This document shows positions 16,001-19,059 of a DNA stretch of 64,000 nt, one piece after another. Made by a program: the position numbers and the translations under genes. Every line of letters begins with the position of its first letter. Position 1 is the first letter of the stretch. The notes below the pieces were generated by a model. The model had not been told where the DNA came from. It searched no databases and saw nothing but the letters and a program-made list of their open reading frames with translations. The stretch is from Drouetiella hepatica Uher 2000/2452. Lineage in GTDB: Bacteria; Cyanobacteriota; Cyanobacteriia; Elainellales; Elainellaceae. The DNA is taken from positions 1-64,000 of the forward strand of contig JAHHHD010000019.1 in NCBI GenBank assembly GCA_019359505.1, given 5' to 3'.

Positions 16001-17978
16001 TGCGGTGCAAAACAACGTGCAGCGGGATGCCAAAAAATTTGAGCCTATCGAAGGCATTCCGTTTCCCAACAGCCCGGAAGCCTTGCAAAATTATACCGAG
16101 GCTTACCAATATGACCCGGTGGGCAATATTTTAGAATTCCGCCACACGGGCGGGGAAGTAGAACGCTGGGTGCGCAAATATCAATACGCCCTCGACAGCA
16201 ATCAACTACTCGCCACCCGTCTGCCGGGGGAAGCCACCAATCTGCCGGACTATGCCGCTGTACCTGGTTATGGCGCACAGTACGCCTATGATGACCACGG
16301 CAATATGAAAGCGATGCCGCACCTGAAGGTGATGGAGTGGGACTTTAAGGATCAGTTACACCTGACGCAGCAGCAGGTGGTGAACAACGGCATTGGGGAA
16401 AAGACCTACTACGTCTATGACGCGGGTGGACAGCGGGTGCGGAAGGTAACGGAAATGCAGAACGGCAAGCGGAAGGACGAGCGGATTTATCTGGGTGGGT
16501 TTGAGGTATACCGCAAGTACAACGGCAACGGGCAGACGGTTGTGCTGGAACGGGAAACGCTGCACGTTATGGATGATAAGCAGCGGATTGCGTTGGTGGA
16601 GACGAAGACGGTTACTAACCCTGATGATAAATCTCCTACAAAGCTTATTCGGTTTCAATTAGGTAACCATCTCGGCTCGGCGGCGTTAGAGTTGGATGAC
16701 AAGGCGCAGGTGATTTCTTATGAGGAGTATCACCCCTATGGCAGCACGGCTTATCATGCGGCACGCAATCTGACGGAGACGCCGAAGCGGTATCGGTATA
16801 CGGGGAAGGAGCGGGACGAGGAGACGGGGTTTAGTTATCACGGAGCACGGTATTATGCGTCGTGGTTGGGGAGGTGGACAAGTTGTGATCCAGTCACTCA
16901 CGTGAACTTGTTTGTTTACTGTGCTGGTAATCCCATTTCGTTACATGACCCGGATGGAGAAGATGAGCAACCACAAGAGATGTATCAGGCTCAGGTCACA
17001 GGTCAGGAGACTCAAGAACAGGTTCATAAGATGTTTGGTGCCCAAGGTATTTTCTTCAAGGGAAATGCAAGTTGGATCAAGACTGAGGGTGGCGGCTATT
17101 GGCATCTGCAGAATTGGCAGGTGAGTGCACGCGATACTGGCAGGACACTCAATATGCGCGCCGATACGACTGAGGGCAAGAGACCTGCCAATCCTGCTCC
17201 GACGAAGCCTGCAGGGTCATCGCCAAAGGAGAAAATCCAAGCAAAGCAACAACAGAGTTATGAGGTTGCGAAGACCGGCATGTGGGATATGGCAGTGGAT
17301 ATGGCGGTTGATGCTCTCACTATGCAGGAACCCCAACATCCCGGCTCCACTAGAGAACTCTTGTCCGATGCCGCAAAGCTAATAAAAAGTGGGAAGCCTG
17401 CCTCAACAGGAGACCCTGCAAGAGACCGAGAACTAAAGGAAGACTACGAAGGAGGCGGCATTGTCACTCAAACGGTCGTCCTGGGGCTTACTTTAACACC
17501 TGTGGGCGAGATCGGTGAGGGAGCTCAACTGGCGGCTAGCAAGCTTCCACGACCGTCGAATGGTCTAGGTATCGTTGCTCAGGATTTTACAAGTTCTTCC
17601 GAGGCGTGGGCGAATGGGTATAGGGCACTTAGTGAGCCAAGCGCACCCATCCTTGGTAACCCTCAGGTTACTAGTCCAGGACACGCGGAAACGATGGTCA
17701 AAGTTGCCGAAGACATGGCAAGGATCGAAGACGCCGAAGAGGTTTACATGCACAGCAGGTGGACGACGGCAGATCCGCAGGTAGCTAGTGGGAAGTTACC
17801 CGATAATATTTTGAAAAGTAAATCCGGCGGTTTGACGGCAGTAGAGGTTCCGTCACCGAGCGATCTCAGATCAGCCAAAACGTTCGGCTCACTCATTGCC
17901 CGAGTTCTCAAACCGATGCGAGGAATGGGACCCAAATCGGAAGGTCTATTCATTATTTTTCCTCCTAAAATCCCGTAA
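10011..17978 (+). CDS. Fused TcB-TcC toxin-complex cocoon protein (SpvB N-terminal domain, FG-GAP/VCBS region, TcdB mid domains, RHS repeats, Rhs core, C-terminal hypervariable payload)
   Basis: - SpvB N-terminal motif: SLPKGGGAIKGMGEKFAANPVTGTGS.
- FG-GAP-like motifs: DLNGDGHSDIL, DMSGDGLTDIV and DIDGSGTTDIL.
- TcdB_toxin_midN-like stretch: KPHLLIKTVNNLGTETVVQYAPS...FRGFGRVEQ.
- RHS repeats: YTYDPVGNITEI and YQYDPVGNILEF.
- Rhs core: RYRYTGKERDEETGFSYHGARYYASWLGRWTSCDP...HDPDGE, ending at about nt 16961. Confidence 0.93.
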   Translation: MLDRSAQADSKQTPESDKSYFASPPTVSLPKGGGAIKGMGEKFAANPVTGTGSMSIPIATSPGRSGFGPQLSLSYDSGAGNGVFGLGWNLSLPSITRKTDKGLPRYWDGEESDVFILSGAEDLVPVLKADGTVDEFERDGYHICRYRPRMEGLFARIERWTKLDLGEIHWRSISKDNITTLYGQTDKSRIADPSDPNHVFSWLICESYDDKGNAICYGYKSEDTKKSVGINTAQAHEGNRTPESRSANRYLKHIQYGNLKPRQPNEDLSQREDWLFEVVFDYGEHDLANPISKEPEQWSTATLRNDPFSSYRSGFEVRTYRLCQRVLMFHHFEGEAGVGKDCLVRSTDFNYSYEQNPTDVRNPIYSFLLSATQTGYKRNGSSYIQKSLPPLEFTYSEANVDETVRDVEPASLENLPQGLDGTRYQWVDLDGEGLSGMLTEQGNGWFYKRNLSPINAVQDNGKTHVEAQFAPLELVTSKPASGLANGAQFLDLAGDGQPDLVTLRGAVPGFYERTQDEGWEPFIAFKSLPVVDWDNPNLKFIDLNGDGHSDILISEDHCFVWYPSLAEEGFAAAERVIQPWDEEKGPRVIFADSTQSIHLADMSGDGLTDIVRIRNGEVCYWPNLGYGRFGAKVTMDKAPWFDHPDIFDQRRIQLADIDGSGTTDILYLSESGVQVYFNQSGNGWAAKRTLSYFPAIDSVASITAIDLLGNGTACLVWSSPLPGNGRRVMRYIDLMGGQKPHLLIKTVNNLGTETVVQYAPSTRFYLQDKLDGKPWITKLPFPVHCVEKVTVTDKWRKTIFSSTYSYHHGYFDGIEREFRGFGRVEQVDSESYGEFASGNAASPYITKDKTLYQPPVKTVTWYHTGAFLDREQILSQFKHEYFSLGTFKENGLPQPDLEAEALSAEEWREALRTCKGMMLRQEVYELDVDALELGEHRPVKLFSTAYHNCHIRRLQAKGQNQHAVFLVAESEAITYHYELDLTQDKLNPDPRIAHTLNLQFDEYANVLQSVAVVYPRLGKFEDDAKLADGLTDALALISQVQQETHIAYSETRYTEDFGNKPADTLAALDNHRLRVPCEVLTYELTGIKPKSGLHFTLHELQAFRLSLVHQKSGTLVPDIAYHQIPKRTTPEKRLVEHIRMLFFNENLVDPLPFGEHGRLGLPYETYKLALTEALLDAVFKDAAGISKLDQIIDVAPLDGTTTARAKLNKANISGYLSGAKLAARITGVDTTGQYWIRSGIAGFANFAAQHFYLPERYTDSFDNVTTLEYDLRDLFIMSSTDAMNNTTRVTKFDFRVLAPREIQDINNNLSEVYFDVLGMPTLMAVKGKGNEGDNLIGVTDARANPTIAELAKFFNQPDLDQAQASIWLGNGTARHLYYFGETEEKLPNGKIAIRWGQHPACACGIVREQHVSQLAPGEQSPLQASFEYSDGMGSVVVKKVQAEPEKAGQPIRWVASGKTILNNKGKPVKQYEPYFSAPAVGHKYEEPIEVGVTPIIYYDAAGRTVRTEMPDRSFSRVEFSPWHVRTFDPNDTVKKSQWYTDRNPPNPDQPLPRNPITGEFLVTPEQRAAWLAAQHADTPALTILDSLGRDVIAIAHNRVKDAAGVLEERHLTFTKLDAEGKPMWIRDARKNLVMQYIRPSVPNNQAADPVDGFVPCYDVAGNLLFQHSMDAGDRWMLNDAAGKPMCAWDNLGRAFRTDYDALHRPIGSFVKGANPDDPNQIVQFEKVIYGDTPGNGLSDDPKSAKGDQTRNLNLRGKPYQHYDTAGLVTSLGRNPATDAEEAFDFKGNPLRSTRQLIEKYQETPNWSQKPALEGEIFSSTRYDALNRPIQMVAPHSNGVNTKFNVIRPGYNEANLLERVDVWLEQTAEPTTLLKPTTANLKAVTNIDYDAKGQRLRIEYNEANHPVITKNHPIVTEYTYDRATFRLSRLLSTRPNHPEADKRTLQDLSYTYDPVGNITEIRDKAQQRVFFNNSLVDPSNTYTYDALYRLVQAEGREHAVQNNVQRDAKKFEPIEGIPFPNSPEALQNYTEAYQYDPVGNILEFRHTGGEVERWVRKYQYALDSNQLLATRLPGEATNLPDYAAVPGYGAQYAYDDHGNMKAMPHLKVMEWDFKDQLHLTQQQVVNNGIGEKTYYVYDAGGQRVRKVTEMQNGKRKDERIYLGGFEVYRKYNGNGQTVVLERETLHVMDDKQRIALVETKTVTNPDDKSPTKLIRFQLGNHLGSAALELDDKAQVISYEEYHPYGSTAYHAARNLTETPKRYRYTGKERDEETGFSYHGARYYASWLGRWTSCDPVTHVNLFVYCAGNPISLHDPDGEDEQPQEMYQAQVTGQETQEQVHKMFGAQGIFFKGNASWIKTEGGGYWHLQNWQVSARDTGRTLNMRADTTEGKRPANPAPTKPAGSSPKEKIQAKQQQSYEVAKTGMWDMAVDMAVDALTMQEPQHPGSTRELLSDAAKLIKSGKPASTGDPARDRELKEDYEGGGIVTQTVVLGLTLTPVGEIGEGAQLAASKLPRPSNGLGIVAQDFTSSSEAWANGYRALSEPSAPILGNPQVTSPGHAETMVKVAEDMARIEDAEEVYMHSRWTTADPQVASGKLPDNILKSKSGGLTAVEVPSPSDLRSAKTFGSLIARVLKPMRGMGPKSEGLFIIFPPKIP

Positions 17979-18078
17979 ATCCTGATACAGTGCGATCTCC
18001 CGATCTTGTAGGGTGCATTAGCAGTCAGCGTAACGAATCAAATCCTCAAGAAATAACCAGACAAGGAGGGAATCAGGA

Positions 18079-18495
18079 TTTACAGGATTTAAGGATTGGC
18101 AGGATTAAGAAATTGAGAGATTAGAGAATTGGAAACTGGGGAAATACATTATGCCGATCAACCTGGAAATCCACATCAGGATTTACAGAATTCAAGGATT
18201 TACAGAATTTGAAGAGTTGAATTCAAGAATAGAGTTGCCCATCTTGAAAAATCAAATCAAGATTTACGGGATTTAAGGCTTGACAGGATTAAGAGATTGG
18301 AAAATTAGACAATTAAAGAAATGGAGCAATAAATTATGCTAACGAAATCCGAAATCTTGAAAAATCAAATCAGGATTTACGGGATTTTAGGATTGACAGG
18401 ATTAAGAAGAAAAATTGGAGAGAAATAACATATGTTGCTAAATTCAAAAATCCTGAAAATCCTCTAATCCTGAAAATCCTGATACTGATACGGAC
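18079..18495. repeat. Array of degenerate ~100-125-bp hairpin units built from the AATCCTG heptamer in both orientations
   Basis: Each unit starts with a CAGGATTT-type cluster, for example ATCAGGATTTACGGGATTTTAGGATTGACAGGATT at about 18368. Each ends with an AATCCTG cluster, for example AATCCTGAAAATCCTCTAATCCTGAAAATCCTGAT at 18449-18483. The two clusters are inverted repeats of each other. Related units start at about 18081, 18176, 18265 and 18365. Confidence 0.8.
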
Positions 18496-18885: not shown

Positions 18886-18961
18886 AGGATTTGCAGGATT
18901 CAGTAGATAGGCATTTATGCAAAATCCTGAAAATTCTAAAATCCTAAAAATCCTGATACAG
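18863..18961. repeat. A further AATCCTG hairpin unit overlapping the 3' end of the GxxExxY gene
   Basis: Left arm ATCAGGATTCACAGAATTAGAGGATTTGCAGGATT and right arm AATCCTGAAAATTCTAAAATCCTAAAAATCCTGAT. The terminal AAATCCTGATACAG also occurs at 17978-17990 and, with one A>T substitution (AAATCCTGATACTG), at 18475-18488. Confidence 0.8.
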
Positions 18962-19059
18962 ACAAGCAAGAGGGCGATCGCAGTAGGTGTCAATAGGCGA
19001 TTGAAGGCGATCGCACCTGAATTCCATAAATCATTGCCCCACTTTTAAGGATATTCCCA

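Follow-up and report, generated by a model that had tools for sequence, protein, structure and literature searches.

We describe a small gene for a GxxExxY protein, together with the inverted repeats that bracket it, in a 64,000-nt stretch of DNA from the cyanobacterium Drouetiella hepatica Uher 2000/2452 (contig JAHHHD010000019.1, positions 1 to 64,000; the whole stretch is called the window here). The gene lies between copies of a 42-nt arm at a Tc toxin locus that it shares with the homologues of other cyanobacteria, and it encodes a nuclease with the fold and the motifs of the PD-(D/E)XK class that is kept under purifying selection. Arms adjoin the gene in its relatives as well, each protein clade having repeats of its own, and the block of arm, gene and arm fills certain operon gaps in one species, with a bias to the sense orientation, and is absent from the same gaps in another. 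On balance we lean towards an arm-bounded cassette whose nuclease would act on its own arms, and which would have been placed in sense orientation into operon gaps, spread horizontally and then been kept vertically.

The arm consists of TTGTCTGAAT followed by four CAGGATT heptamers at 8-9-nt spacing, which is the heptamer plus a spacer of 1-2 nt (Tandem Repeats Finder gives a period of 9 nt, not 7). Eight copies are found between 17960 and 18964 of the window, five of them left (L) arms and three right (R) arms, the R arm being the reverse complement (Table 1). AATCCTG is counted 29 times in the window, where 11.3 +/- 3.4 copies would be expected, with 15 of the 29 within 17978-18955, and clusters of AATCC or GGATT (at least three within 45 nt) are found nowhere else in the 64 kb. 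An initial annotation, made from the letters of the window, had described inverted heptamer clusters of about 35 bp; the inverted clusters stand, but instead of being loose they form a single conserved 42-nt arm sequence. The boundary string that it had seen three times, AAATCCTGATACWG, is present at exactly three sites (17977, 18474 and 18948), where none is expected. It had also taken the region as four to five units, each foldable as a long hairpin. The hairpin units are there, but the folding of each was overstated, because only two of them clearly beat their shuffles (18366-18490, z -6.3, and 18858-18966, z -4.6) and the three middle units, whose right arms have decayed, fold no better than shuffles (z -0.5 to -2.4). 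The pair at 17958-18107 folds moderately (z -3.1). The upstream intact unit is an inverted repeat (I8) of 35 nt, 83% complementary and 45 nt apart, and another inverted repeat (I2), of 40 nt and 88% complementary, brackets the GxxExxY gene. Positions 18368-18964 are one intact 'hairpin - GxxExxY - hairpin' module, and positions 17960-18367 are a decayed tandem array of the same unit.

The loop of the upstream hairpin is itself conserved. Its ATG at 18432 starts a mini open reading frame (ORF) of 11 codons, MLLNSKILKIL (18432-18467), that extends into the R arm. The loop is identical at 34/35 positions in homologue locus L002, at 35/47 in L147 and at 34/43 in L088, so that a non-coding loop is 75-97% conserved, GGAGAG-N9-ATG and the short ORF included, despite saturated synonymous sites in the adjoining gene. 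A promoter and terminator scan of 17800-19200 gives nothing above shuffle expectation and no terminator-like site, and Rfam gives no match in the region at E<=1, none in the window at the gathering score, and none at seven distant loci at E<=0.1.

The association of the gene with the arms is general among its relatives. We use 80 genome loci with 808 kb of flanks, whose proteins are 68-90% identical in amino acids and come from at least eight phyla (Cyanobacteria, Bacteroidota, Ignavibacteriota, Chloroflexota, Gammaproteobacteria, Spirochaetota, Verrucomicrobiota and others). An arm model built from 230 arm termini in these loci has the consensus TTGTCTGAATCAGGATTTACAGGATTTTAGGATTTACAGGATT, i.e. 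TTGTCTGAAT CAGGATTTA CAGGATTTT AGGATTTA CAGGATT, and it matches 382 times in the window and the flanks together and not once in the reversed-sequence control. The gene is abutted by an arm in 79 of the 80 relatives, and by a strict detector 83 of 134 arms are no farther than 200 nt from it. The co-localisation of gene and repeats that the initial annotation had supposed from a single locus therefore extends across phyla, and the sequences support that the two belong together. The heptamer cores are conserved and symmetric, and the spacers are non-complementary and A-rich on the sense strand in both arms. Two layouts are found. One is L-gene-R, with the TTGTCTGAAT and ATTCAGACAA termini facing the host DNA; the other, which the window has, is [L-loop-R]-gene-[L(-loop-R)].

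Gene-less hairpins and tandem arrays also occur, in some of the flanks, in viral contigs and in Dolichospermum/Anabaena plasmids. When viral contigs are sampled with 17-mers of the arm, most matches are chance ones in coding sequence, and about 13 are real arms, one of them with the gene. Several short gene-less hairpins (L, 6-60 nt, R) are carried by L109, L117, L124 (IMGVR_UViG_3300033186_000039), L115, L127 and L128, large viral or proviral contigs in which a peptide-pattern scan finds no close GxxExxY gene. A solo L arm at 601-642 of L233 (Anabaena sp. 90 plasmid pANA02, NC_019429.1) fills the 85-nt gap from avd to the reverse transcriptase gene of a diversity-generating retroelement.

More distant homologues have different repeats. 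Seven of them, at 32-61% identity and on records of PLSDB (a 'plasmid' collection), all have short repeats of their own beside the gene, which in the clearest cases are inverted arms with a period of 8-9 nt; in Persicobacter (L137) and Fusobacteria (L138) the copies on the two sides share their orientation. The units are CACAGAGGA in Bacteroides finegoldii, CACAGAGA in Bernardetia, CGCGAAGG in Sphingomonas, and of the CACGGATT type in Treponema and Fusobacteria. The subfamily of B. finegoldii (subfamily B, that of the window being A) can be followed through 80 metagenome loci at 47-100% identity, and 65 of 77 loci have a flanking inverted repeat that exceeds the 95th percentile of the controls. 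Its repeat units are CACAGAGGA, CACGAAGGA or CGCGAAGG, all of them CAC(A/G)(A/G)AGG-like. The top flank 6-mers, AATCCT/AATTCT in subfamily A and CACAGA/CACGAA in subfamily B, show no overlap, though both subfamilies occur in Bacteroidota. Within subfamily A, a GGATT/GAATT variant switches in concert over all heptamers of an element (GGGG in 99 and AAAA in 38 of about 200 arms); it is independent of the GC content of the locus (0.400 vs 0.401) and tracks the protein clade in 53 of 57 cases. As judged from these patterns, the 42-nt arms appear to be the cognate repeats of the window protein's clade.

The protein has one recognisable domain. Its ORF, the sole GxxExxY gene of the window, matches PF13366 (PDDEXK_3; 6e-38, 130.2 bits against a cut-off of 22) and TIGR04256 (2e-39, 134.6 bits against a cut-off of 35), and PDDEXK_3/GxxExxY is its only Pfam/NCBIfam match. 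The initial annotation had read the array's only gene as a 129-aa GxxExxY protein with a D...ExK motif, and these matches bear it out together with the invariance of D66, E76 and K78. Over family members at 28-61% identity the invariant residues are G24, E27, Y30, D66, E76, K78, Q90, Y94, G103, N107 and F108, which comprise the E, D, ExK and QxxxY motifs of RecB/Cas4-type nucleases (E27, D66, E76-x-K78 and Q90xxxY94). An AlphaFold2 model from a diverse alignment of 137 sequences has a mean predicted local distance difference test (pLDDT) score of 92.2, while 32 close homologues on their own give 52, an unusable model. The protein has the PD-(D/E)XK, restriction-endonuclease-like fold in its Cas4/RecB-like form, and the fold relatives listed, with their scores, are the BpuSI nuclease domain (9.8), Cas4 Pcal_0546 (9.7), HsdR (8.1), Dna2 (7.9) and Hjc (7.5). 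A search of the PDB by sequence gives no match. The core is of about 125 aa, with two cysteines only (C13 and C33) and no Fe-S domain, and none of the PADLOC defence models matches it beyond a weak match to the Cas4b core (2.5e-4).

Gene and arms overlap at one end and nearly touch at the other. As the initial annotation had noticed, the start codon stands just past a unit end, with the ATG 7 nt beyond the R arm terminus at 18488, and the last codons (...QDQDSQN) come from the next unit, in which the final 26 nt of the gene lie. This arm-encoded tail is predicted to be disordered (pLDDT 59 for residues 121-129). Most of the cyanobacterial homologues fetched end in a translated L arm of this kind, for instance ...QDQDSQN or ...QNQDLQD. 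The homologues are unusually well conserved, being 80-93% identical in amino acids among cyanobacterial genera and 68-85% in other phyla. The GxxExxY gene is under strong purifying selection, with a ratio of non-synonymous to synonymous substitution (dN/dS) of 0.013-0.04, about 0.03, among cyanobacterial copies, whose synonymous sites are saturated.

The next question is whether the arms and the gene are gained and lost together, and two operon gaps provide an answer. The gap between radA and a FAD gene contains arm-gene-arm in B. finegoldii and is empty, at 13 nt, in Parabacteroides distasonis; the gap between fabD and fabG contains arm-gene-arm in Sphingomonas parapaucimobilis and is empty in S. 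paeninsulae. These comparisons are between genera or species and not between strains. The idea of a cassette, raised in the initial annotation, gains from both gaps, in which arm-gene-arm is present or absent as one block between conserved neighbours, and because of these filled and empty gaps the unit appears to move as a block. In Phocaeicola massiliensis (L146, 837-1511) the radA|FAD-gene gap holds a different ORF, of 225 aa and without arms, and three states of this one intergenic site are thus seen among Bacteroidales.

The insertions follow the direction of the operon. The gene is on the strand of the upstream gene in 61/67 loci and on that of the downstream gene in 51/64, and the corresponding counts for subfamily B are 33/47 and 41/46. 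In 38/58 loci the arm block touches or overlaps the stop codon of the upstream gene (an arm overlaps it in 22/58), and in 30/52 it does so with the downstream ATG. In 29 arm-gene-arm units the termini TTGTCTGAAT ... ATTCAGACAA lie directly against host DNA. The flank on the left is frequently A-rich, and of the two termini the right one, GACAA, is better preserved than the left one, TTG. At the level of sequence, these comparisons show arm-gene-arm as one insertion unit, sense-oriented, in operon gaps.

The neighbourhoods are of several kinds. Many copies are in housekeeping operons without a variable gene (fabD|fabG, radA, ade|manC), and Fic, PIN/MazE, XisI and Uma2 genes are recurrent neighbours. 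A hsdS gene is found on the same strand within about 3 kb in 14/80 subfamily-A loci (L004, L007, L013, L017, L022, L029, L043, L044, L049, L053, L061, L062, L064 and L072), at no more than 300 nt in nine of them. In the loci of protein P0120 (L097-L106) hsdS is directly upstream. In several of all these loci the hsdS reading frame begins within an R arm or immediately behind it. One Bacteroidales chromosome (L052, 1956-6414) has four GxxExxY copies, three of them in tandem at 489-nt spacing; their outer flanks are identical, and they are therefore tandem or segmental duplications rather than products of transposition.

In the window the module is located between a tcB-tcC fusion gene and tcA. 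The same arrangement is found in six of the eight cyanobacterial genomes with context, which belong to different genera (the window, Nostoc flagelliforme, Alkalinema, Symploca and two metagenomic cyanobacteria). L002 is a seventh case in part, with tcA on its downstream side and a contig that begins at the cassette, and L001 is the only one of the eight outside a Tc locus. The identity of the 610-nt module is about 79%, in line with the 70-73% of the toxin genes. The R arm at 17960 covers the final codons of tcB-tcC and its stop codon (17976-17978), from which the initial annotation had concluded that the array hit the 3' end of a toxin gene. That picture is misleading: the module has this position in six genomes and has diverged roughly with the toxin genes, and the overlap is typical because arms commonly overlap upstream stop codons in the family. 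From the synteny and the identities, the cyanobacterial clade is a long-standing resident of the Tc toxin operon and not a recent insertion. Past the last arm, homology to module-less related strains resumes after about 9 nt, at GCGATCGC (18973).

The mechanism that we favour can be outlined as follows. The nuclease would recognise its own arms, either as heptamer arrays or as the hairpin or cruciform formed by them, and would cut at the recognised arms. Repair or strand transfer at the break would then copy or move the arm-bounded unit and maintain the arms. The gene-less hairpins would be non-autonomous derivatives, multiplying mainly by tandem duplication. If a circle of gene plus hairpin underwent one crossover with a resident hairpin, the layout of the window would result, and the L-gene-R layout would follow from homing into a hairpin that is empty. 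That the protein recognises the arms is suggested because the arms are clade-specific, the heptamers change in concert, and gene and arms are inherited together. We infer the binding or cutting of the arms and any movement from this pattern, and the self-propagation that the initial annotation had suggested would be a further step of the same kind.

Several observations weigh against this mechanism. There is no direct evidence of recent movement and there are no identical copies in different contexts: identical or near-identical proteins always share one context (P0120 in 24 contigs, P0035 in 9), the copies of the B. finegoldii type are all at radA with flanks that diverge in parallel, and the cyanobacterial copies are syntenic in Tc loci. 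Recent transposition is rejected on the shared context of identical proteins and the shared flanks of the L052 copies. Outside the termini, no consistent direct repeat of the kind left by target-site duplication is found in 29 arm-gene-arm and 54 gene-less units. The window has no clean empty site either, because the relatives of its downstream GH5 gene (92-96% identity) that are without the module have different upstream genes or contigs that end at repeats. Recognition of a heptamer array by a 125-aa nuclease core with no extra DNA-binding domain has, to our knowledge, no precedent. The long vertical persistence and the dN/dS of about 0.03 suggest a maintained function, unlike a purely selfish homing gene after fixation. 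The sense bias, the abutting codons and the A-rich sense-strand spacers would fit a role of the arms in RNA as well. Synteny, parallel divergence of the flanks and one context per protein therefore point to rare insertion, spread between phyla and vertical persistence.

That RNA-level role is the alternative we take most seriously, although we judge it unlikely. The arms would act in the read-through operon transcript and the nuclease would be directed at something else in the cell; by folding, the arms would cause the GxxExxY message to be looped out or processed, would bring the upstream stop close to the downstream start and would control translation, possibly by way of the mini-ORF, whose Shine-Dalgarno sequence and ATG the hairpin loop would expose. 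The gene's sense orientation relative to both neighbours and the arms that adjoin stop and start codons agree with it, and so do the A-rich spacers, by which the stems become 7-bp helices split by A:A internal loops, and the conserved loop with GGAGAG-N9-ATG and a mini-ORF in a conserved frame. Mismatches between paired arms, however, show no excess of G:T, the sense-strand wobble, over A:C (98 against 111, and 40 against 35). This and the lack of any Rfam match lead us to reject RNA structure as the selected feature, and the region has no terminator-like site. A role in RNA would leave unexplained that each clade has its own heptamers, that all eight heptamers change in concert, and that viruses and plasmids carry gene-less hairpins. 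It is also compatible with the arm-bounded cassette, as a feature that reduces its cost and not as an alternative. A little less probable is a module that benefits the host at variable loci, either as a recombination accessory (for the tcC C-terminal toxin domain or for hsdS) or as a stand-alone defence nuclease. Seven of the eight cyanobacterial copies are in a Tc locus, six within about 1 kb 3' of tcB-tcC and that of L002 5' of tcA, and the C-terminal domains of tcB-tcC do differ (AHH, CdiA_C_tRNase-like, no Pfam match). The frequency of hsdS near the cassette in the 14 of 80 loci from other phyla and in the P0120 loci, the Fic, PIN/MazE, XisI and Uma2 neighbours, the strong purifying selection and the long persistence would all suit such a module. 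Many copies are nevertheless in the housekeeping operons named above, PADLOC has nothing beyond the Cas4b core match, and the enrichment next to hsdS and toxin genes could simply mean that loci of this sort are often transferred horizontally or tolerate insertions.

Two other explanations receive very little weight from us. In polymorphic toxin systems the immunity gene usually sits after the toxin gene, and in six cyanobacterial loci the GxxExxY gene follows tcB-tcC, directly or past a short ORF or gene fragment; it might then be an antidote to the TcC C-terminal toxin domain, with the repeats as unrelated neighbours. This is very improbable. The protein is 85-93% identical across loci with unrelated TcC C-termini, the same subfamily is found in 78 non-Tc contexts, the nuclease active site is complete and the repeats follow the gene everywhere; on these points TcC immunity is rejected. 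The last explanation, to which we give hardly any credence, is coincidence: the host genome would have a generic dispersed repeat, to which the AATCCTG clusters would belong, and these would be next to the gene by chance. The gene-less copies in flanks, viral contigs and plasmids would be in its favour. It is refuted by the association in 79 of 80 loci against none in the reversed control, and by the repeats of the second subfamily, each subfamily having its own; the window has no other cluster in 64 kb. The array is not the generic dispersed cyanobacterial repeat that the initial annotation had feared, since in the 808 kb of flanks the arms pile up at the gene.

Table 1. Features of the GxxExxY module, its repeat array and the flanking Tc toxin genes in the window.
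Feature	Position	Strand	Evidence or remark
tcB-tcC fusion gene (SpvB, TcdB_toxin_midN/midC, RHS)	10011..17978	+	upstream neighbour in 6/8 cyanobacterial loci
R arm (reverse complement of the 42-nt arm)	17960..17990	-	nhmmer arm model 22.1 bits, E 1e-4; repeat family D4; boundary string at 17977
79-nt spacer, R arm to next L arm	17991..18069	.	no recognisable gene
L arm, decayed unit 1, right arm eroded	18070..18105	+	nhmmer 30.4 bits; weak fold, z -2.4
L arm, decayed unit 2	18175..18208	+	nhmmer 26.7 bits; fold z -0.5
L arm, decayed unit 3	18255..18289	+	nhmmer 20.6 bits; fold z -1.4
L arm, intact unit directly 5' of the gene	18368..18402	+	nhmmer 28.0 bits; fold z -6.3
Loop of the upstream hairpin unit, conserved	18403..18449	+	GGAGAG at 18417-18422; ATG at 18432
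R arm, upstream unit; terminus 7 nt 5' of the GxxExxY start codon	18450..18488	-	nhmmer 30.9 bits; boundary string at 18474
GxxExxY gene, 129 aa, minimal Cas4/RecB-like PD-(D/E)XK nuclease	18496..18885	+	
L arm, downstream unit; shares the last 26 nt of the ORF and encodes ...RQDQDSQN	18860..18900	+	nhmmer 30.9 bits
R arm, downstream unit, module end	18924..18964	-	nhmmer 31.9 bits; fold z -4.6; strain comparison
tcA gene (ABC_toxin_N, Neuraminidase)	21496..31434	+	downstream partner in tcBC - module - tcA

The Tc (ABC) toxin operon occupies 10011-31434 of the window and is unusual in its composition: tcB-tcC is followed by the GxxExxY module, at 19060-20247 by a GH5 mannanase-like gene that also has a PG_binding_1 domain, at 20397-21434 by a Linocin_M18/encapsulin-like gene, and then by tcA. 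A Linocin_M18 gene is also directly 5' of tcA in L147, L002 and L082. Two GCGATCGC octamers of the HIP1 type are located at 18973-18980 and 19006-19013. The spacer after the first R arm contains GTAGGGTGCATTAGCAGTCAGCGTAACG, a stretch that is partly self-complementary, and a 44-aa ORF at 17990-18124 has no Pfam match. In Nostoc flagelliforme (L088, CP024785.1) a 40-aa 5' fragment of a Uma2-family gene is upstream of the cassette (2726-2848) and a full Uma2 gene is downstream (3562-4074); their first 80 nt or so are about 80% alike, which resembles a duplicated or recombined gene start around the cassette. L147 (2020-2978) resembles a cassette array, with three hairpin units and an ORF in each of the two intervals between them, first a 69-aa C-terminal fragment of XisI and then GxxExxY; here the loop mini-ORF ends in a stop codon that overlaps the start of GxxExxY (TGATG). 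The other tandem repeats of the window are unrelated to the module: a 33-nt unit in 2.5 copies at 27095-27174, inside tcA, where it encodes ...KQRSREREIQ... twice, an AT-rich 8/16/24-nt array at 2769-2926, and a 34/22-nt array at 5287-5378.

The searchable literature has no description under GxxExxY, PDDEXK_3, PF13366, TIGR04256 or the arm strings, and it gives no function for GxxExxY proteins, which are annotated by name in very many genomes. A gene with cognate repeats is a known kind of arrangement; for the package of GxxExxY and arms we find no published account, and we see a substantial chance of a new class of element. The GxxExxY/PF13366 family has thousands of genes in at least eight phyla, with no described function. 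A bolder proposal would make the whole family a new class of autonomous element, in which a nuclease of about 125 aa, Cas4/RecB-like, is the sole enzyme, the arms are lineage-specific sets of four heptamers at 8-9-nt spacing, insertion into operon gaps is driven by cleavage at the arms, and hairpin 'MITEs' (miniature inverted-repeat transposable elements) have been spawned; we regard it as conceivable, and would sooner bet against it than for it. If it were true, at least some of the palindromic repeats that are orphans in cyanobacteria and Bacteroidota would gain an enzyme, and a chemistry of transposition or homing that is absent among known mobile elements would be added. If the nuclease acts on the arms, this could also account for the orphan hairpin repeats of cyanobacterial and Bacteroidota genomes and for the breaks in their assemblies. 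An anonymous family becomes a testable system of a small protein and a 42-nt DNA, with clear predictions. The fixed position in the Tc operon and the frequent adjacency to hsdS raise the question of an influence on recombination or expression at variable loci.

Several known systems share some of these features. Beggiatoaceae, Cyanobacteria and Bacteroidetes carry repeats of the heptamer TAACTGA, 7-nt units in direct tandem for which no associated nuclease gene is reported (PMC4679880). They resemble the arms in being heptamer-based and intergenic, often ending just 5' of start codons, and in occurring in the same unusual phyla; they differ in the heptamer, in the direct tandem arrangement and in having no inverted arms. 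Integron gene cassettes carry attC hairpins, and the 'hairpin - ORF - hairpin - ORF - hairpin' order of L147 has a similar layout, but the cargo of the module is almost always the same gene family. We reject an integron-like reading, as no attC core site (GTTRRRY) is found at the arm ends TTGTCTGAAT / ATTCAGACAA, a check by core motif and not by a dedicated attC model; no integrase is found among the called neighbours of the loci looked up. With Cas4 and RecB the GxxExxY protein shares the E, D, ExK and QxxxY motif set; unlike Cas4, it is of about 125 aa, has two cysteines and no four-cysteine Fe-S cluster, and is flanked by its own repeats. Cas4, Cas1 and Cas2 are absent from the called neighbours of the homologue loci looked up, and the window was not systematically scanned for cas genes.

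Anabaena sp. 90 has 147 'type II MITEs' without a cognate insertion sequence (IS) (PMC3542288). The module is like MITEs and IS elements in its terminal inverted repeats, its gene-less hairpins of 80-250 nt, its tandem arrays and the assembly breaks at its repeats. It is unlike them in that it contains no known transposase (DDE, serine, tyrosine or HUH), the PD-(D/E)XK nuclease being the sole ORF; no target-site duplication is seen in the 83 units. Homing endonuclease genes include some of the PD-(D/E)XK type, e.g. I-Ssp6803I. The module resembles them as a small nuclease gene that is present or absent as a block at a conserved site (here between genera or species), and its gene-less hairpins could act as 'empty' targets with the arms as repair homology. 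It differs from them in being outside any intron or intein, in having its own terminal inverted repeats, and in persisting under purifying selection after fixation, where a fixed homing gene is expected to decay.

The initial annotation had likened the array to repetitive extragenic palindromic (REP) sequences around their REP-associated tyrosine transposase (RAYT). The logic of that comparison holds, with an enzyme gene, inverted repeats of its own and gene-less hairpins, but membership fails for both enzyme and repeat: the module is not a member because it has no Y1/HUH transposase and its arm is not a REP tagged with GTAG or CGTC. The enzyme of the module is a Cas4/RecB-like PD-(D/E)XK nuclease and that of RAYTs is a Y1/HUH transposase of the IS200/IS605 type. 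REPs are GC-rich imperfect palindromes of 20-40 nt with a conserved GTAG or CGTC head (PMC3733652), while the arm of the module has 42 nt, four heptamers at 8-9-nt spacing and a TTGTCTGAAT terminus. The module copies, unlike REP/RAYT, are sense-oriented in operon gaps, and the family has spread between phyla. A REP/RAYT genome has tens to hundreds of dispersed gene-less copies; the window has no other arm copy in its 64 kb, and the flanks of the relatives show occasional gene-less hairpins or arrays. Three reports describe RAYTs as mostly vertical, long-lived and under purifying selection (PMC3116915, PMC5581495, bioRxiv 10.1101/2022.05.22.493013), as the GxxExxY module is. The two systems further share an enzyme gene flanked by its own inverted hairpin repeats, repeats that are specific to the clade, and gene-less doublets elsewhere. 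If the nuclease acts on its arms, the module would be a second partnership of enzyme and repeat beside REP/RAYT, with a different catalytic fold.

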